From positions 1 to 16,164 of the forward strand of contig JBJCIZ010001376.1 of NCBI GenBank assembly GCA_051294375.1: 16,164 bases of DNA. Reading direction: 5' to 3'. The translations under genes and the position numbers were made by a program. Below are positions 2,733-16,164 of the stretch, piece by piece. Numbering within the stretch: the first letter of the stretch is position 1; each line of letters opens with the position of its first letter. The notes below the pieces were generated by a model, which did not search any database, was not told the DNA's origin, and saw only the letters and a list, made by a program, of their open reading frames with translations. The stretch is from Paraspadella gotoi. Its lineage: Eukaryota > Animalia > Chaetognatha.

Positions 2733-3036
2733 TATGGTGGACTCAAAATTCCACAACCGTTCATCAGCGGCCATTGGTTGCCGAGGCGTCATTCGCCTCC
2801 AACCAAGGTCGGCGGTCTAGCCGTTGGTTAACTATCAGTTAAGAGGAGTAAACACGAATGAAATGAGCTACTTCCATCGACATTTTCGCAAAAGTCTTTG
2901 ATGTATCACAAAGCGCCTGTTAAGAAAGTTTAACCCGCCTGTAAACACAGGGTTGTTACAGCCTTTGATCCGAAGTTCAGGACTGCTATATATTGAACGT
3001 TCTGTCACTAAACATAATAATAATCACTGCTCTTCA
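2733..3036 (+). repeat. 5' LTR (degenerate, ~60-bp extra segment near 2860-2925)
   Basis: Aligns by eye to 3228-3477. Confidence 0.7.
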
Positions 3037-3227: not shown

Positions 3228-3477
3228 TGTTGTGGTTGGACTAAAATCCAACAACGTCATAATATAGCGGCCATTGGATGCTGGAGGGCAAGTCGATTCG
3301 CCTCCCACCAAAGAATACCGAGGTTCTTAGCCGCGCGTGATCGACCTGGCAAGTTAAGATGGGAACGCTCAACTTAACCCGCCTGTAAACACGAGCTTTA
3401 CAGCCATGATCCGAAGCGAGACTGCTTATATTCAACGGTTCCTGTCACCTAAACATAATAATAATCATGTCTATTCA
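3228..3477 (+). repeat. 3' LTR (TG...CA)
   Basis: Starts TGTTGT right after the PPT and ends TATTCA right before the TSD. Confidence 0.72.
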
Positions 3478-5685
3478 CAGGTCAAATTTTTCTTGGTACA
3501 TTTTGCCTGACTTTACGGGTCGACAATGTCGAAAAGACTTGATCGTTGTCAGTAGTCGTCACTGTATTTCGCCTTAAAACTATTTGAGACTATGGGCAAA
3601 TCGGACGAATATATAGTGAAAAATTGTTAATATATATTAAATCGCATATTTATGATTATTGTAATGATATGAGAAAAAAAACTTGCACCATAATTTTCTG
3701 TATTTACTATAATAATTAAAGACAATCCATAAAACAAAAAAGAGATTTCGCTGTTTATCTAGAATTTATTTACCAATAAAGACACTTATCATCATGAAGT
3801 AGCTTTATAAACGAAGGGGAGTCAATGGTTGACGAATTTTTCACGAATTTTACATTTTACATTTGTTGGTTTTTTGTGTCTGTAGTACCACAATTCAATT
3901 ATTATACTACGAAGAATCTTTTCGAAGTTTTTCTCGCATATAAAATTTAAGATTCTTCCTTTGTTAATAATTACTCTAATTATCGACATTGAAGAGATCT
4001 CGAAATTCAGTTTCCTCCGCATATTTACCGTCGGCGAGGGACAGTTGACGTCAACCACCCGCAGGAATCCAGTTCTTTTCCGATCTGTCCCTTCTGTCGG
4101 CGATTAATGTCACTGCGTCAGAGGCGAGCGTCAGCGCTCTTGAATAGCGAAATCGACCTAATTCATAAATTACCGTTTTTGTTAAGACGGTAGTTTTTTT
4201 TACGCGCTAAAAAATGAATAAACTTTAAAGTAAAAGAAGCAAAAAACAATTATATTATTTAGTTTTGACAACTAAATTTTAATGACAGTTTTTTAGACAA
4301 GACAATGTTATCGACTTCTGCATTTATAAGTGATCAATATCATCGCAATTAAAAGTATTCGTTGTACAACAAATAAAAAATTGTTTTATCTACATAATGC
4401 AACCAAAACAACAGAAAATCGAAAGAGTCTAACGAACCGTTGCAAAAGTTGAACTGGCGAAACCAATTACAATGCCAAAAATTTTTCGCATATTTCTATT
4501 ATAATGTGAAGCTCAAACTTGAAGCAATGAATAATTATTAATACGACACGCGTTTGGGTTCAACCAAACCTCCTTTTTATTTACATAACCCGTCACTTAT
4601 TACAAAAAACGAAAAAATTGAGTTTAAAAAAGCAATACCAAATGGCAACTCGAGTTTGGTGAAAAATCTCTCTGATCAAATTTCTATACTCTTGATTTGT
4701 CAGTTAAACATTATGCCAAAAAATAAATATAAATATTTATAATTATATAACCAAATGATAGCTGAGACCCAAGATCTTACTTTTCTGATCTTATTGAAAT
4801 TTCGATTAAGACAATATGATAAGGTTTTAGATCAATTCCAGTTTGAAAACTAAAATGACTTTTTTTTTTTTACACTTTCAAGATTTGACTTTCTTTTTTT
4901 ACTGTTGTTCCTTATGTAATGCGGTAAACATTAATGGAGACATTTTGATGTCTAGGTCATGTTATTGCAATCGTGTGTATATTGAAAATTGTTCGGACTA
5001 CAACTTCTATACTTAGACACAGTTTTATTTATTAAAAACAATAGGAAAAAATACATTTCGAAAAAAAGATTTTGCAGTTTTGAGAATTCTTAGATCTGGA
5101 TAATAGGGTACAAATTTTGCATTTTCAAAAAATCAGCTTTTGATATTGATTTTCTACAATCTGTTTTTTTCTTTTTGATACTTGTAATTTAGAGCGAAAA
5201 TAAATTCTCAATAGCATATGGTCATTATCGATTTTTCTCTCGATTTTGTAATTGTTGTAAATACTTTAGGATAGAATTTAAGTATATCATATCTGTATAA
5301 GCAGACAAAATTAGGGAGAGTAAAGTAGGAAAAAAGTCCAGGAGATAGAAAAGTTTGAGGAAAAATTATAAAAGGGAAAGGGAGAAGAGGAGAGGAGCAC
5401 TAGGAGTGAAAGTGAAGGTTTGAATCAAAATCTTAGCAGTTATATCTTGAAAACCATCATATTAATGAATATTAATGAATATTAATTTAAAATTTGCATT
5501 TTGAAATTTTGAAATTTTTTTCATTTTAACATCAATCTAAGAGATAGTGTGTGTGTGTGAGAGTGAGAGTGTAAGAACGATATAGAGACGGTAAATTAAT
5601 GTATGCATGTATTTATGAAATTATGTATGTTTTATGCGTGGAAGGAGGATCTTTAATCAATAATGAGCAAAATAGATATGAAGGA

Positions 5686-5708
5686 AGAGAGAGAGAGAGA
5701 GAGAGAGA
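5686..5708. repeat. (GA)n microsatellite upstream of the start codon; (GT)n/(GA) tract also at ~5547-5572
   Basis: Direct reading. Confidence 0.9.
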
Positions 5709-5802
5709 TAAAGAATAAGTTCGGGATTTATTAAAAACTTAACGGAAATTTTAATATAAAAACGATTTATCATCGTTGCATAGAAACAAATTTGACTTTA
5801 TC

Positions 5803-6635
5803 ATGCCATTTAAAAGGAAAACTCAGAAACAAAAATATGTGAAACATGGTTCATATATTAAAAATGCAGATGAAAAACAAAGATCCTTAAAAAAAAGATG
5901 CAACAATGTCTACAGAGGAGGAGACAAAACGGAAGAAGATGCATCGTCCTCGTCAGAATCCTCTGCTCCTCTCCAAGCTGGAGAAGAACGTCGAGGCAGA
6001 CCATCACTTGTAGGTATCCCTCTAACTTCAGCAGAGCAAAATGAGCGAAAGCGTAAAATCTATCAAAGCAAAAAGGAGGCGAAAAGGAAAAGTGATCTAC
6101 GGCGTGAGGCTGCTTTCAAACGTTGGCGTCCAGAACTGTTCTCTGATGAGATTTCTGTAGCCGTGGAGGAAAAAGGGGGAGGCGATGCTGCAGCAGGCAA
6201 GCAGGGAAGTTCTGCGGAAATGGACGAGAGAACGGAGCCATGTCTAGATTTTGAAGATGGTGCTGATTCTGTTGAAAAAGACGTCATTTCTGTTGAAACT
6301 GGTGCTGATGGAGATTCTATGGCAATACCTTTTGGGAAGAGTCAAAGCAGTCAATCACGAGCACGGAGTTATTTCAACTCATTTTTTGTTCACCGAGATG
6401 ATTTACAGCAAGTAGATCTTCTTCGCCAATTTAGTCTTGATTTTCTCAAAAGCGGATTAAAGTTGTATGGTATTGAGGCCGTTAGAAAGAATTCCTGCTC
6501 ATCTTTATCTCATCGGCAACTTCGTTACGCTACTAGTGCGGTAATGAAAAAAATGAAAGTCAATCCCAATCTGAAAAGTTGTATTCCAACATTATTGGTT
6601 GAACGCTTCGATCTGTTGGAAAAAAAACTCGGAAG
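5803..6635 (+). CDS. Exon 1: basic/acidic N-terminus with AT-hook-like RRGRP and a basic, NLS-like helix (LTSAEQNERKRK)
   Basis: First ATG of the 287-aa ORF is at 5803; donor AAG|GTAAAT at 6636, phase 2. Confidence 0.8.
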
Positions 6636-9600
6636 GTAAATTTAAAGGGAATCAAATTCATTCATTCAATACACTCGTCTCTTTTGATTTAAAAAAAAAT
6701 TGGCCCATAAAATGAGAGATTCATTACATTTCTCTCTATTTTTATACTTCTAGGACTTTTCTTCAGTCTGCCGGACTAAGAAGAACACATGTGCAGTCGG
6801 CAAAGCGAGTCGATGAAGTTTTTGAGGAAGTTCTCTCGACGCTCCTAAGAGCCCAAGAAGAATCGTCTCGCAGTTTTGTTGTCAAGGTTGCACTTGGCTT
6901 GTGTAAAGGACTTGAACTAAAAGGATCAAGAGGAGATATTTCAATTATTGCTCAAAAAGTTGGGATTTCAAGGGGTTTTGCAAAAAAGATTATTTTTGCT
7001 TATGTCGAGGGGACTGAAAACGTCTTATACGAGAGGAAAAGATGCACCGCTTTTGAGAACACAACATGGGCCGAGAAGTTTAAAGAATTTGTTTTTAAGC
7101 CTGAGAATGCTCGCGCCGTTCCAGGTGGTAATAATTTTTTAAATTGGATATCATTACTTAGGGTTGTTGTCATTGTGATTATATAAAAGTCATTTTTGTA
7201 TTTGTCTTCTTTTTTTCTTTCTTCCTCTCTTTCTTCATTTTTTCTTTTTAATTCTCTTTCTTTCTTTCTTTCTTTCTTTTTCTTTCTCTTTCTTTTTCTT
7301 TCTTTTTTCTTACTTTTTCTTTCTCTTACTTTTTCTTTTTTTCTTTTTCCTTCTTTCTTTCTTTTTTTTACTTTTTCTTTTTCTTTTTTTCTTTCTTTTT
7401 TTTTCTTTCATTTTCTTTCTTTCTTTTTTTATTTTTTTCTATATTTTTTTTCTTTATTTTTTTTTCTTTTTTTTTTTCTCTTTCTTTTTCTCTCTGTTAT
7501 TCAATTTATTTTGACCTGAATATCCAGAGAAAAATATTTTATTAGCCGGATCTGCTTACAGAGGATTACGGCTCTATAATCCAATTTGTCGGTCAAGTCA
7601 CTTAAATCATGTCAGAACATCTAATTATGATAAACTATGAAAATGTCCGTCCGTCCAACCATCCGTCTGTACGTCCCTCCTTAGCTTTGAACGCCAAGTG
7701 GAATAGAGTTTAAATGAAAAAAACCCAGGTCACATTCTTTTTCAATTTTTAATTTTCAATCTCTTTCTCTCTCTTGGTTAAAATGATTGATTGAATGATA
7801 AGTTTGATTGATTGAATGATTGATTAATAGATTTGTTTCTTGATTTAATAAGGAATCTGTTATGATTTCCTATGTTTCTCTCTCTCTCTCTCTCTCATCC
7901 GATTACAATCTCAATCCATTTTCGATCCCAATTAATTTTATGGTAAAAACTACAGAAATCCGAGAAAGAAACTTATATAATAACAACAACAACAACAACA
8001 ACGGAATGATAATTAGGTAGCGTTCGGACCCTTTCGCTCTCGCTCTCTCTCTGTTTCTCTCGCCCTCAATACAGCTTTTCCCTTCACCGATCGCTTCGAC
8101 CTTTAAAATTATATCATCGCATCAATGAATATCATCACTTCTAATAATTAATTAATTAATTAGATCAGGCATTGTTTGCTCATACTTATTGATACTGTTT
8201 TGACTTTTCAAGGCTATGAAACAATTTCGGTTTCGCGCGGGAATCGATTGCCAAAATTTCTGACTCTCGACTCAAAAAAGAACATCGTAAAAAAATTTAT
8301 AGAAGAAACCAAATGTCCGTTTTCATTGCGGCTTCTATTGAGAGAATATCCTCGCAACATTGTTACTCCAACTCGTCGTGATATTGACCGGAATGCATGT
8401 CCAATTCACGCTAATTTTCGGTATAAACCAGTTAAATATTATTTTTTAAAAATCCGATTGATTACGTAACCAAACAAGTAACAATCTTATTACAGTAGAA
8501 AGTGGGCGGCGGGTCAACGTTGCGGTCTCATTGTTGACGATCAAGTTTCGTGCCGAATGATTGTCGCAAAATACATGTGCGACACTATTGATCCCTTTAC
8601 CCCTGCCACATGGAATGAGTCCTGTTCGACAGGAAACTGCAAACAATGTCCGGAAGTAATCTTTCCTATCCCTTTCGAATCTGAGGGTACATCAGTTTCC
8701 ATATCACTATGGACACAGAAAGAAATCAATGGGAGAAAAAAGTATGGACTTTGGCACGTTGTAAAAAAGATAGAAGAACTGGCTGCAGAACTAAAAAAGG
8801 ATATCGCAGATATGAAGCGCCACATATACACTGCAGCGGTCAGTTGGCAAAAACTTAATAACGATATAAGTCAACTTCGTCCTGGCTTAGACTTATTATG
8901 TTTCGAAGACTATCAACGTAATTTTGAAATAATCCACCGAGAGATGCCGACGTCGATGGGATATTCAGCAAATGCAATGACTCTCGCAATGTTTCCTGTT
9001 GGTTTAAAGTTTCGACGCTCATCTGAAAGTTCGAACGATTTAACACCTATAGAAAGTGGAGCAATTGTTTTTTTAACAACAGATCTTCACCACGATTGTT
9101 CCCAAGTCGAAGAGTTTGAGCGAAGGTAAAAAATATCATTAAATAAATCAATAAATAAATTAAGAATTGTGTCATGCACGTGTTTTGAGGAATCTCCCAA
9201 CAGCTGGCGCTCAGGGCTTTGGACCTGCAGTCCCCAGGTCACTGGCGTGTTTATACTAGCACCATCACACTTAACCAGCGTGACTGTGATGTGATTGAAC
9301 TTGGAACACAGTTGTTAAGCTAGTACTTAGCTTTCAAAAGCTAAAGAGACTAGCTCATTTGAATCAAACTTTACGTGTGGAGAATTTAACATATGCCACA
9401 ATGTTTTAGCGCCGCACTGCAGGACAAATTACCGCCTGTTATTTGCTAGTTTTCAGAAGTTCGGATCTGACTGTGTAGTCCGCCACTACAGGTTGGGGCG
9501 CGAACCTCAGACCGCTTGGTGAGAAGAGAGAATTCTCGGCGGTCTCAGGCAGGTGGCGATAGTTCCTTTGTTGCCACAATATAATGTTACTCAATATTTT

Positions 9601-10876
9601 TAACCCTGCCGCATTCAGACTAATGAAAATTTTTGAGGAGGAATGCTTTAGACCCACCTCATTCATTCGCTGGACTGATCAGTGCGCAGCACAATTCCGG
9701 TCTCAATATACAACACAAAACTTATTCCAAATCCGTGAAAAAGTTTCGCCGCACCTAGAGAACGTTATATTCAATTATTTCGAAAGCCATGAAGGAAAGA
9801 ATTTTTCCGATACAATTGGTGGTTTGGCCAAGCAGTCCTACGAACGAAGCATAAATCGCGGCTCAACCTTTAATGATGGCCTTGGAAATGAAGATGAAAC
9901 GGCCGATCAAGGACTTATAATCGCAGAGCAAGTAAAAGCGCGTATTCTCTCTGGACTTTCCTTTAATGGTGGACAACTTGGGGATTTTTCATTCTTCCGG
10001 TAAACAATACCTAAAAAAGAAAGTTTATTTATAAAAATACAATTTCATTTTCTTTATTAAGGATCGAGATTGTACCACCGTTTGAACGCGCGCCAAATCC
10101 CAAGGGTATTCAGATAAAAGGAATTTCTAAAATTCATTGTATCCGACTTCATGGTAAAAGTATCTTGCCAAAAAAATTCCCGTGCTTTAATTGCACTGTT
10201 TCAAAAATCTGTAGCGGATGTGAAACCGCCGATATCGCCTATTCTAAAGATGTGGATGAAGTTGCCGATAACTGTGCTGACCTTTCTCTCCCACCTACTT
10301 TTGAAGAAGATGATGGAGATAACACAGATAATGATAGCGATGGAGAAAATGACATTGGACTAGTTGAAGATGAAAAACAATTCGAGGAACAAGATGAGGA
10401 TATGGAAGTTGGCTCAATCTTGTGGGCACCCTTTAGGTTCAAACCAATAATGATATTTTTTTTTGCTTCTTATACTTTTTTTTATCCTTTGATTCTCTTT
10501 TTTCTTTATTTTTGTATCATCTTTTTTTTTCCTTTATATTTCAATTTTAATCATTTTTTTATTATTTTTTTTTATAATTTTTTGTATAATAATATTTGTT
10601 AAGAATAATTTATTAATATGCAGTGGTCGTCGTTACTTTCCTGCCAAAGTTGTTTCGCTCTTTGAGATCCCGGCTCGTCATCGACCTTATTTTACAAGGG
10701 TTTCGGATGACCGTATTCTTGTCAGTTGGATTACAGAAAATACTTTCTCAGCCGTTCGAAAATGTTGCTGTTTTCCTTTGGGAGTCACCGACCGCGACAA
10801 TATTTTTGCAGCAAAATCTCTGGAGATGAAAATTCGATACAGAGAGGCTCTAAAACTTTTAAGCAATTTGGATTGA
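5803..10876 (+). CDS. Spliced gene, join(5803..6635,6754..7124,8213..8420,8496..9125,9619..9999,10062..10436,10624..10876), ~1016 aa: Sola2-like DDD transposase with C-terminal PWWP-like domain
   Basis: Six GT-AG introns join the ORF-track fragments with phase preserved at every junction (3051 nt including TGA at 10874-10876). Motifs follow the Sola2-type order: CPIHANF, C-x4-C-x2-C (SCSTGNCKQC), FEDYQRNF (D1, 8908), TTDLHHD, WTDQCAAQFRS (D2, 9677), YFESHEGKNFSDTIGGLAK (D3, 9809), IKGISKIHCI, CFNC..CSGC, then VGSILWAPFSGRRYFPAKVV (PWWP-like). Confidence 0.85.
6754..7124 (+). CDS. Exon 2: includes an HTH-like segment (DISIIAQKVGISRGFAKKI)
   Basis: Pyrimidine tract plus TAG acceptor at 6751-6753 keeps frame into the 6791 ORF; donor CAG|GTGGTA at 7125 (alternative GTAATA at 7128, same phase 1). 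Confidence 0.8.
7200..7497 (+). repeat. ~300-nt polypyrimidine (T/C) low-complexity tract in intron 2
   Basis: Almost entirely T and C (TTTC/TTCT iterations). Confidence 0.95.
7542..7734 (+). mobile_element. Helentron/HINE-like non-autonomous element, internally deleted copy in intron 2
   Basis: TTAGCCGGATCTGCTT end, CATGTCAGAAC block and GTCCGTCCGTCC (7645-7656) match the reverse complement of 15970-16150. The tail matches the ~160-bp repeat unit. Confidence 0.7.
7877..8002. repeat. (CT)n (~7877-7896) and (AAC)n (~7982-8002) microsatellites
   Basis: Direct reading. Confidence 0.9.
8213..8420 (+). CDS. Exon 3 (GYETISVSRG...NACPIHANFR)
   Basis: TTTTCAAG| acceptor, phase 1 matching exon 2; donor CG|GTATAA at 8421. 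Confidence 0.8.
8496..9125 (+). CDS. Exon 4: Cys cluster and first catalytic Asp (FEDYQRNF)
   Basis: TACAG| acceptor (NAGNAG, CAG-TAG), in frame with ORF 8557-9129; donor AG|GTAAAA at 9126. Confidence 0.85.
9168..9578. other. GC-richer, highly self-complementary insert in intron 4 (candidate solo LTR, SINE/MITE or structured ncRNA)
   Basis: Sharp composition change relative to the AT-rich intron ends; termini TGTGTCA...TGCCACA form an imperfect inverted repeat; multiple helices listed in findings. Confidence 0.5.
9619..9999 (+). CDS. Exon 5: second and third catalytic Asp (WTDQCAAQF; SHEGKNFSDTIGG)
   Basis: TTCAG| acceptor in frame with ORF 9584-10003; donor CG|GTAAAC at 10000. Confidence 0.88.
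10062..10436 (+). CDS. Exon 6: IKGISKIHCI motif, CxxC-x5-CxxC, acidic linker, start of PWWP-like domain
   Basis: Pyrimidine tract plus AAG acceptor at 10059-10061; open frame continuous with ORF 10165; donor AG|GTTCAA at 10437. Confidence 0.82.
10624..10876 (+). CDS. Exon 7: PWWP-like domain body (SGRRYFPAKVV...ILVSWITENTFSAV...RYREALKLL*)
   Basis: TGCAG| acceptor at 10621-10623. The phase-2 frame (absent from the ORF track) stays open for about 83 codons to TGA and completes a W-A-x(5)-YFPAKV motif across the junction. Confidence 0.8.
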
Positions 10877-11179
10877 TTGCTACCCATGAAATCTAGGCAA
10901 AAATGCTGTACAAGTATTAGTACTTCTTTCACATATAATCGGTTTAAAAAAAAAAAATCATTTATTCAAAAGAAAAGAAAAAGTTTTAGTTTTAGCGGCC
11001 AAAACAATTCCGATCGCTACGATATTGTCTAATTAAGCGTGGGTGTAATCAATTTAATTCAGCTTATTCAAAAAGATAAAAATATAAAAATTTCTTAATA
11101 TGTGATATATATCGGATCATTAACAAATTGCTACCAATATTCAACAACAGTGGCAGCAAATTACAAATATATACAAATA

Positions 11180-11283: not shown

Positions 11284-11884
11284 TTGCAATCTTTTTTTCA
11301 TACTGGCATTATTTTTTTTTACTTAATCGAATAATTAATTAATCAATCAATTAAAACATTCTATGATAAACTATAAATATTAAAAAATTCAAAGTCAACT
11401 TGATTTTGTTTTTTTTTTTATCCAAAGTAAACCCATTTCCACTGCTTCATTCCATCTAAACTTTATATCTGCTAGTCACCCCACACTTTCCTTACATACC
11501 ACAAAATTTTTATTTCAATTATGATTAATCCAGAGTAACTTATGGCGTTAAAATTGTTTTAAAAAAAGATTTTAGTTAAATGTGACTTATGGTTTTTACA
11601 TATTAACTCTTTCTCAACTCGCAGAAATTTCCATTAAAATTTATATCCAACTCAACCACGCACTATCCTACCTACAACACAAAAATTTTTCAAAATAGTA
11701 ATTTGAGTTTTTGTATGGGGGTTGATGGACATCGGTTTTTTTTTTAATAATTTATCATTAATTCGATTTTCTTGACATGATTCAACTGAATGATCCGACC
11801 AAGTTTAAGGGGTTTGGACAGAGACGACAACAAAGTGATTAAGAGAGTCGGAATCTGCTGAAAAGCAGATCTGACTAAAAAAAA
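11180..11884 (-). mobile_element. Helentron/HINE-like element (long copy)
   Basis: Terminal hairpin AGTCGGAATCTGC-TGAAAA-GCAGATCTGACT plus A-run (11846-11884), two ~170-bp internal repeat units (~11420 and ~11595), and a degenerate TTGCA minisatellite. Colinear with 15110-16150. Left boundary approximate. Confidence 0.7.
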
Positions 11885-12224
11885 ACCAAACTATGGGTAA
11901 AACTATTGCTTAATATTTGTTATGCCCTGTTAGGCATCGACTACTGCTGCCTGATTCATTTCAACTGGGGCGGTCGGGAGCGTGTTATCTGTCGTTTTAC
12001 AGTGAATGGCATATATATCGTAAGATTATTTTTTCCATATCCTCGTTATATTTCAATTATTTTTCAGCCTGCCCCGATGTTTAACTTAAAATAGCAAACT
12101 TTTGAACCAAAAAAAGGTGTACAGTACTTTTCTGCATAGCCATAACTAAAAAAAGATGAAAAAAAAACTTTATTTTCGAAATAAAACAATGCAATCACCA
12201 AGAATAGTAAAAAACTAAATTTAA

Positions 12225-12390
12225 TTTTTTAGTCAGATCTGCTTATCAGCAGAATTTCGACTGTTATATTCATTTTGTTCATTCATCCGGTCCCCCTCCC
12301 AAAAAATCTTGTCGGTAATCATAACGAAGGAAGATCGAATTATTGACAAAAAAAATTATCTGTGGTCTGCTCTCCAACTGTCGTCCATTT
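12225..12390 (+). mobile_element. Helentron/HINE-like element, terminal fragment
   Basis: TTTTTTAGTCAGATCTGCTTATCAGCAGAATTTCGACT is the inverted counterpart of 11846-11880. Similarity decays by about 12390. Confidence 0.68.
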
Positions 12391-14496: not shown

Positions 14497-14741
14497 CATT
14501 TATGTGTGAATGAAAGGAAATAAAGGTTTGGGGCAAAACGCAATGAACATACGTTTAATTAATATTAAAAAATCAATTCACCGTGAAAAACAACCAAATA
14601 AGAATCATTTGCATCCAATCCAAATTGTTTTAAAAAATTTTTAGAGCCCTCTGTATCATTTATGTATGAATGAAGGAAATAAAGGCTTGGGGACAAAATG
14701 AAATAGTTAATTAATATTAAATATCAATTCATTGTAAAAAC
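14497..14741. repeat. Tandem duplication of an ~85-95-bp block with 160-bp period
   Basis: CATTTATGT(G/A)TGAATGAA(A)GGAAATAAAGG(T/C)TTGGGG starts at 14497 and at 14657. Confidence 0.85.
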
Positions 14742-14781
14742 AGAGTTGATTGCAGCAAATACATTTGTCGATCGCCTACCG

Positions 14782-15052
14782 ATAATTAATTAATTAATTA
14801 ATTTAATAAGTTATTTAATTTAATTAATATAATTAATTATTAATTAATTATTAATTAATTATTAATTATAATTATATTATTATAATTATTTAATAAAATT
14901 TATTAATAAATAAATTATTATTAATTTATTAGATTAATTAATTTTTAATTTGAACTAATTAATTAATAATATTAATTGATAATAAAATAGATTATTATTA
15001 ATTTATTAATTAATATAATTTTAATTACATTAATTAATTATATTTTATTTTA
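14782..15052. repeat. Nearly pure A/T tract rich in TTAA/TAAT iterations
   Basis: About 270 nt with only a handful of G/C. Confidence 0.92.
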
Positions 15053-15109: not shown

Positions 15110-16150
15110 AATTGCGCACGTTGCTTTTAAGATTTTTTTTAACTATGCATCATTTTCTCAACTTGCATCAGTTTTTTCATTTTGCATCATTTTTTCAAAT
15201 TATGCATCATTTTGTTCAATTGGTGCCATCATTTTTTTTCAATTGGGCGATCATTTTTATTTACACTTGCAATCATTTGCTATTCAACTGTGCATCATTT
15301 TTCAATTGCATCATTTTTTTCAACTGCTAATTCTTTTTAATATGCATCTATTTGTTCACATTAATAATTAATTAATATACATTAATTAATTAATTAATTG
15401 AATTTTAAAACATTTATTCAGTAAATCTTAAATAATAAAGATTCAAGCTAACTGTGACTGTTTTTTTCCATATTAACTTCATTTCCACTGGCACAATTCC
15501 GTCAAAACTTTATATCTAGCTGATTAATGAATTATTAATTAAATTAATTGGACCTAATTGATTAATTAACTGATTTAATTATTTGATTTATTAATACATC
15601 CTTGCATATACATTTAATATAAAAGGAAAAAGAAGCATAATCAATTAGTGAAACAGGCTTTTGTTTTTTTCCATTTAAACTCATTTCCACTCCAAACGAT
15701 TCCATCGAAACTTGATTTCCGGTTCATCACACGCACTTTCCTACCACATATAAAATTCCAGGGCCAATCGCCCCATCCATCTAATGAGCAATTGAGTTTC
15801 AAATAGTGAATTATAATCTTTTTTGTTTTTTTCCATTTAAACCAATTTCACTCGCCCGATTCCCTCGAAACTTCATATACATCTCAAATCATACACTTCC
15901 TACCCGCCACACAAAATTCATTCCAATCCATACCATGCAATCACGAGTAATTGGTGTTTTTGCTGAGGTGGGACGGACGGACGGTAATGGACGGACGGAC
16001 ATCAATTTTTTTGCATAATTTATCATTAATTACGATGGTTCTGACATGATATAAGGTTAGTGCCCGACAATTTGTAGGGGCTGGACCGCGACGGACGCGA
16101 CAAATGAATTATAGAGTCGGGATCTGCTGATAAAGCAGATCCGACTAAAA
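15110..16150 (-). mobile_element. Helentron/HINE-like element (longest copy)
   Basis: Hairpin AGTCGGGATCTGC-TGATAAA-GCAGATCCGACT-AAAA (16115-16150), (GGAC)n at 15971-16000, three internal repeat units (~15455, ~15660, ~15822) and a TGCATC minisatellite. The architecture matches DINE-1/HINE/pearl-type elements. Left boundary approximate. Confidence 0.72.
15140..15358. repeat. ~19-22-bp minisatellite, consensus AA(C/T)TGCATCATTTTTTC, about 11 degenerate units
   Basis: Recurrent TGCATCATTTT cores; a more degenerate version is at 11185-11325. Confidence 0.8.
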
Positions 16151-16164
16151 CCAATTAAGAATTG

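Follow-up and report, generated by a model that had tools for sequence, protein, structure and literature searches.

Gene structure and transcription

The window analysed here, a 16,164-nucleotide (nt) stretch of contig JBJCIZ010001376.1 from the chaetognath Paraspadella gotoi (assembly GCA_051294375.1), contains on its forward strand a gene that runs from an ATG at 5803 to a TGA at 10876. The gene is composed of seven exons separated by GT-AG introns, its frame is open over 1016 codons, and it encodes a Sola2-type DDD transposase carrying a C-terminal PWWP domain. The reading that we favour, at a probability of about one half, is that this copy has become stationary and is kept by the host, that is, domesticated, and that its product is tethered to chromatin. 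The parts of the gene, with amino acid (aa) positions in its product, and one relic downstream are as follows.

5803..6635, forward strand: exon 1 (aa 1–278); basic low-complexity N-terminus, family GRP motif at aa 64–69, followed by the first part of a helical region; intron 1 joint found in run X6
6754..7124, forward strand: exon 2 (aa 278–402); helical region, probably DNA-binding; donor at 7125 from X6; family hidden Markov model (HMM) E 2.7e-20
7125..8212, forward strand: intron 2 (1088 nt); T/C array, inverted fragment of a high-copy repeat, microsatellites
8213..8420, forward strand: exon 3 (aa 402–471); conserved C-P-x-H motif (C464, H467) at its end
8496..9125, forward strand: exon 4 (aa 471–681); C514/C519/C522 cluster, H580, Asp609 (8908), D667-x-x-H670-D671
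9126..9618, forward strand: intron 4 (493 nt); high-copy repeat at ~9173–9460
9619..9999, forward strand: exon 5 (aa 681–808); Asp701 (9677), H738-E-G-K, Asp745 (9809)
10062..10436, forward strand: exon 6 (aa 808–933); four-cysteine cluster C849/852/858/861, acidic linker, first PWWP strand
10624..10876, forward strand: exon 7 (aa 933–1016); remainder of the PWWP domain (F938, W968, E971), stop codon
14600..14770 (approximate), reverse strand: decayed inverted copy of ~90 nt of terminal exon 7 sequence, interrupted by a repeat insertion; recognised by blastn (43 nt at 86%, E 3e-7) and in an extended alignment

Among the splice-site combinations tried, six models with GT-AG introns throughout are open from 5803 to 10876 and give products of 1015–1018 aa, and 16 are open if GC donors are allowed. 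The 1016-aa model listed above is favoured by contigs from runs X6 and X7, which are nearly the same and are counted as one RNA observation; their RNA nature is deduced from the splicing, no run being recorded as RNA. Intron 1 is cut out at 6636–6753 in an X6 contig (joint listed as 6633/6752, GT..AG), and intron 2 is spliced out in an X6 contig that passes from the end of exon 2 (7124) directly into exon 3. Intron 6 is skipped in contigs of both runs, a contig present in both begins at 8495, consistent with the intron 3 acceptor, and the support for intron 5 is indirect. A spliced form of intron 4 was not seen among the X6 and X7 contigs, which also contain unspliced intron sequence. We conclude that the gene is real, spliced and transcribed. 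An earlier sequence-only reading of the window had described an intact gene of seven exons and ~1016 codons, and the open GT-AG models and the spliced contigs bear this out.

That reading also reported insertions and microsatellites in introns 2 and 4, and high-copy repeats are indeed found in both. Intron 2 contains a T/C array of ~290 nt at ~7195–7495 and, at ~7540–7725 in inverted orientation, part of a very high-copy repeat with a hairpin end, while the repeat in intron 4 (~9173–9460) differs at no fewer than seven places from most of the listed members of its own family. The depth of run X1 on these intronic repeats is 38,000–120,000, compared with 124–138 on the exons.

A Sola2-type catalytic core

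A full HMMER scan of 1.84 billion representative proteins recovered 126 relatives of exon 4, and none of the 30 relative clusters looked up bears an informative name. Among the relatives are several full-length, intronless sequences that can be aligned with the window protein from end to end at 24–33% identity; the closest relatives (45–61% identity) are short fragments without genomic context. A profile built from 23 relatives alone scores the window protein at 642 bits over positions 1–957 of 959. Asp609, Asp701 and Asp745 are conserved in 26 of 27, 23 of 26 and 24 of 25 covering relatives, respectively, and these are the three putative catalytic aspartates that had been placed at 8908, 9677 and 9809 and that prove to be retained. 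With the triad included, the window protein keeps 51 of the 55 columns that are conserved in at least 85% of covering relatives (28 aligned), the four changes being K>S, S>T, S>G and N>T.

In the AlphaFold model of a relative, P0150 (predicted local distance difference test score, pLDDT, 83), the three aspartates are positioned at a strand end, a second strand end and a helix start of an RNase H core. The model superimposes on integrase and IstA cores with Z scores of 10–10.7 (for integrase, root-mean-square deviation (rmsd) 2.8 over 148 aligned residues), and Foldseek with the whole model returned no match at E ≤ 0.001. The DDD triad is thus predicted, from the model of this relative, to sit in an integrase-type RNase H core. 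No transposase domain is named by Pfam on the window protein, and Sola cores are described as having no Pfam domain in the available portion of PMC5751038.

The sequence-only reading had called the protein a Sola2-like transposase, and this holds by motif order, compared by eye with the published Sola2 alignment (PMC3627910, Additional file 10) rather than by a profile score or a tree with named Sola1/2/3 sequences. The shared order is PG..VS, C..H.N, a C-C-CP cluster, QW, H and the first Asp, followed by SD.L.HD, the second Asp, HGK..third Asp and G...H. The motifs differ in detail, the window family having D-Y-Q-x-N around the first Asp where the published Sola2 sequences have D-F-S/A-E-N-Y, and E-x-H/N-E-G-K-N-x-S-D around the third Asp in place of A-T-S-H-G-K-x-x-D. 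The window family adds a C-terminal four-cysteine cluster, an acidic linker and the PWWP domain, the published alignment omitting C-termini. Unlike Sola2 elements, the window gene has six introns, and no terminal inverted repeat (TIR) or target site duplication (TSD) was found for it.

Exon 4 and exon 5 gave no match in word-seeded protein searches. Relatives were found neither in viral contigs nor, by single-protein patterns (a weak guide), in prokaryotic genomes, and metagenomes yielded a single locus, L001, with an intronless relative. Upstream of that relative, at L001 59–205, lies an inverted repeat resembling a miniature inverted-repeat transposable element (61-nt arms, 84% alike).

Matches to 19 of 110 relatives cease at the position of intron 4, two other bins being as high (15 and 20). 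The full-length intronless relatives lie mostly on contigs of 3.5–4.7 kb, a weak observation that is biased by open reading frame (ORF) length. The idea that the relatives are mostly broken copies was rejected: 65 of the 126 end inside exon 4, but a stop, a frameshift, another intron and a contig end are indistinguishable there. Two relatives, P0014 and P0021, lie on 2220-nt contigs from one source and match consecutive segments of the protein (354–585 and 598–681); they are perhaps one broken copy that is without introns 2 and 3 and ends at the intron 4 site.

The C-terminal PWWP domain

The PWWP domain, which the sequence-only reading overlooked, is split by intron 6, and for this reason exon 7 alone stays below the Pfam cut-off (PWWP, E 0.015); the family HMM matches the same exon at E 4.8e-11. 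The domain exceeds the Pfam cut-off in 6 of 15 relatives scanned and is precomputed in 10 of 13 long relatives. The family profile matches the PDB PWWP domains of DNMT3B (E 2.8e-11), DNMT3A and NSD3, and the P0150 model superimposes on the PWWP domain of BRPF2 (Z 12.8, rmsd 2.4, 96 aligned). A single-sequence model of exon 7 from the window itself was unusable (pLDDT 51). Because the domain occurs in many relatives, the sequence comparison indicates that the fusion is a family trait older than this copy and was not acquired at this locus.

Cage residues W263 and D266 of the DNMT3B PWWP domain (PMC7615734, in the portion available) align to W968 and E971 of the window protein. F938 likewise aligns to an aromatic cage position. 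The first cage aromatic, presumably F236 in the DNMT3B numbering in which the next is W239, corresponds to Arg935 in the window protein, and most relatives have a deletion at this position; a Phe/Tyr close by (F932) might substitute for it. In one arrow worm all DNMT3 copies have lost their PWWP domain and DNA methylation has moved to transposons, according to the available part of PMC12460157, whose main text, to that extent, does not mention Sola.

Copy number, relics and selection

In run X1 each part of the core lies under one contig, at 8011–9145 (depth 138; also 7609–7866) and at 9423–10296 (depth 124). Other low-copy X1 contigs have depths of 46–183, many of them 90–126, and repeats reach depths from thousands to 120,000. 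Run X5 agrees with a single cover of the core (depth 14), and no second copy at least 85% alike over the core was found among the X1 contigs listed. With contig depth taken as a rough guide to copy number, the filter dropping records, the core is present at about one locus, possibly two, and the low copy number holds.

Relics of the gene ends are present, at 7–15% divergence. A 5' relic is 85% alike over 5751–5877 and has lost the ATG, and two listed 3' relics are 90–93% alike over 10296–10518, one of them including intron 6 sequence; the PWWP-coding end (10151–10873) is at ~3 times the core depth in X1. The inverted exon 7 relic, ~4 kb downstream of the gene, was also overlooked in the sequence-only reading. 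Six differences to the 3' relics are listed, three silent and three conservative. When decay without selection is simulated, the frame is still open at 2.5% divergence in at most 0.03 of trials, and at 5% divergence in 0 of 500. The frame is intact despite this expected decay, and therefore selection is likely to have acted since the relics split off. Diverged repeat insertions in the introns and relics of both ends, beside a frame that is still open, suggest long residence.

Element ends and flanking sequence

No long inverted pair flanks the gene in the window, and candidates combining a short TIR with a 4-bp TSD number 1, compared with 1.5 ± 1.2 expected (30 shuffles). No TIRs were found around the relative at L001, whose contig has short flanks. 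The earlier claim that an inverted-repeat pair is missing therefore stands for long pairs in the window and not for a 12–13 bp TIR of the Sola2 kind, which is not visible there.

The comparison with read contigs covered the window without 7191–7499. Near 10874–10923 the X5 cover ends (10873), the X1 depth drops from 359 to 94, and the match of the inverted relic stops at about the same place. A short, very high-copy repeat lies at 5433–5476, ~330 nt upstream of the ATG, where identical cover starts. Missing cover before 5433 and after 10878 is not taken as proof of a boundary, X1 having holes in exons 1 and 2 too. The idea of a Helitron-like 3' terminus following the stop codon was rejected (hairpin z −0.3).

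The neighbouring elements are heavily decayed, as had been proposed: neighbouring repeats are 74–86% alike, and of 14 ORFs in the flanks or introns none reaches the Pfam cut-off. Rfam gave no match. One very high-copy repeat family occurs at 7540–7725 (reverse), 11330–11890 (forward), 12221–12290 (reverse) and 15380–16160 (forward). It has repeats of the GTCC type inside and a strong terminal hairpin followed by an A-run (three of the four copies have z −4 to −7); we take this hairpin-ended family to resemble DINE-1/Helentron-associated elements. Further repeats in the window are a decayed direct duplication at 2735–3036 and 3233–3477 (78–84% alike), a short repeat in two copies at 14497–14592 and 14657–14742, one of them interrupting the exon 7 relic, an array made up only of A and T at 14783–15045, and a tandem array of ~20-nt units at 15132–15337.

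Domesticated gene or mobile element

In the reading that we favour, the front half of the ancestral protein would have bound the element ends, the DDD core would have cut and pasted, and the PWWP domain would have held nucleosomes, as the fold and the analogy with LEDGF suggest. The PWWP fusion would have arisen in this mobile ancestor and targeted insertion in a LEDGF-like manner within one chain, and one intron-bearing copy would then have ceased moving and stayed under purifying selection. The present protein is predicted to bind DNA through its front half and to be tethered by its PWWP domain to chromatin, likely at nucleosomes methylated on lysine 36 of histone H3 (H3K36). Its most likely present job would be that of a chromatin-tethered binder of transposon-derived sites, with DNA cutting only putative.

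A tenable alternative, to which we give less credence, is that a Sola2-PWWP transposon with introns, few copies and short or distant TIRs survives here in its last autonomous copy, or in one of two, and that recent transposition rather than the host has kept this copy intact. Some Sola2 elements are 12–13 kb long with TIRs of 12–13 bp and are present in 7–12 copies (PMC3627910, in the part available), the diverged 5' and 3' end copies lack the core, an inverted relic lies 4 kb downstream and several signals end near 10878. The relatives that stop at the intron 4 position suggest that introns are old in the family, and the short contigs of the full-length intronless relatives weakly favour this alternative. 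Against it, the depth reveals no near-identical second copy and the nearest relics, 7–15% away, give no sign of a recent burst; diverged foreign repeats sit in introns 2 and 4; and TIR and TSD pairs are not above chance. Selection acting through transposition should leave near-identical copies, and their lack tips the balance to host selection. Of the earlier proposal of purifying selection on an immobile host gene, selection is a fair inference from the survival of the frame, and immobility is only favoured. It is least probable that the gene is a recently stranded, unselected and transcribed copy that has yet to decay. At 0.5–1% divergence an unselected frame would survive in 0.03–0.46 of trials, and the closest listed members of the intron 4 repeat family differ by few letters, but the relics are 7–15% diverged with no source copy visible, the conserved columns are nearly all kept, and splicing is accurate.

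Several observations weigh against domestication. An open frame and a triad are also what selection for mobility preserves, and in this case neither the introns nor the triad tell a host gene from a transposon. The missing TIRs are not telling, as TIRs of 12–13 bp or ends beyond the window would escape, and end-only relics without the middle, as found here, are typical of transposon deletion derivatives. Exon depth is 1.3–1.5 times the commonest low-copy depth, so that two loci are possible. Identical cover extends only from ~5433 to 10878, and the spliced X6 and X7 contigs depart from the window 2 nt past the stop with 41–45 letters unmatched; the boundary at ~10878 may be an element end, an allele or the limits of the RNA and the filter. 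The end branch of the window protein is not shorter than those of its relatives (0.38 compared with a median of 0.36, in a quick tree of 66 rows, each with 130 or more core residues). Five other runs match letter for letter in the exon and intron contigs listed and hence provide no selection test, and the samples may be one strain; neither a syntenic orthologue nor a ratio of nonsynonymous to synonymous substitution (dN/dS) lends domestication support. Finally, Arg935 occupies a position of the methyl-lysine cage, which makes binding of methylated H3K36 by this copy doubtful and therefore only a prediction.

Programmed DNA cleavage had also been suggested, and nothing was found in its support. 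We regard as very unlikely a host-kept, catalytically active Sola-type recombinase that is targeted by its own PWWP domain, makes programmed cuts or rearrangements and derives from undescribed self-targeting PWWP transposons. The triad and the surrounding motifs are intact, the gene is expressed, and a reader beside a nuclease recalls the PHD finger that RAG2 presumably provides for RAG1; retention of the triad over 5–10% divergence is, however, expected from general protein constraint, and neither a target nor a rearranged product points to such a role.

Relation to known systems and significance

The PWWP domain of LEDGF/p75 tethers HIV-1 integrase, a DDE-type enzyme, to chromatin. There, two proteins of host and virus are involved, whereas in the window family both parts are in one polypeptide of a DNA transposon family. 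RAG1, PiggyMac, PGBD5, THAP9 and SETMAR are domesticated, single-copy and expressed, with catalytic residues kept in some. The window gene shares with them a single-copy-like depth, expression and a triad; they belong to other superfamilies and have demonstrated orthology and activity, whereas the window gene is known from sequence.

Fusions of a reader domain to a transposon enzyme have likewise been described by Grau-Bove et al., mainly with PHD and Chromo domains and found via Pfam transposon domains (bioRxiv 10.1101/2021.11.30.470311, in the available text). Since Sola cores have no Pfam domain, the window family would be missed by such a survey. Among the literature matches listed, there is no transposase-PWWP fusion, although the supplement of Grau-Bove et al. 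may hold PWWP cases, and no paper on a domesticated Sola with a PWWP domain; the available portion of bioRxiv 10.1101/2021.09.26.461848 adds nothing on PWWP.

What is firm in these results is that Sola2-type DNA transposases with an integral PWWP domain form a family, one not met in the literature matches listed. If the domain recognises methylated H3K36, the members would be cut-and-paste elements able to select chromatin by themselves, a one-chain form of LEDGF-guided integration. This bears on transposon target choice and is directly testable because intact intronless members exist. If the copy in the window is domesticated with its triad intact, Sola would join the superfamilies that have given their hosts a possibly active enzyme.
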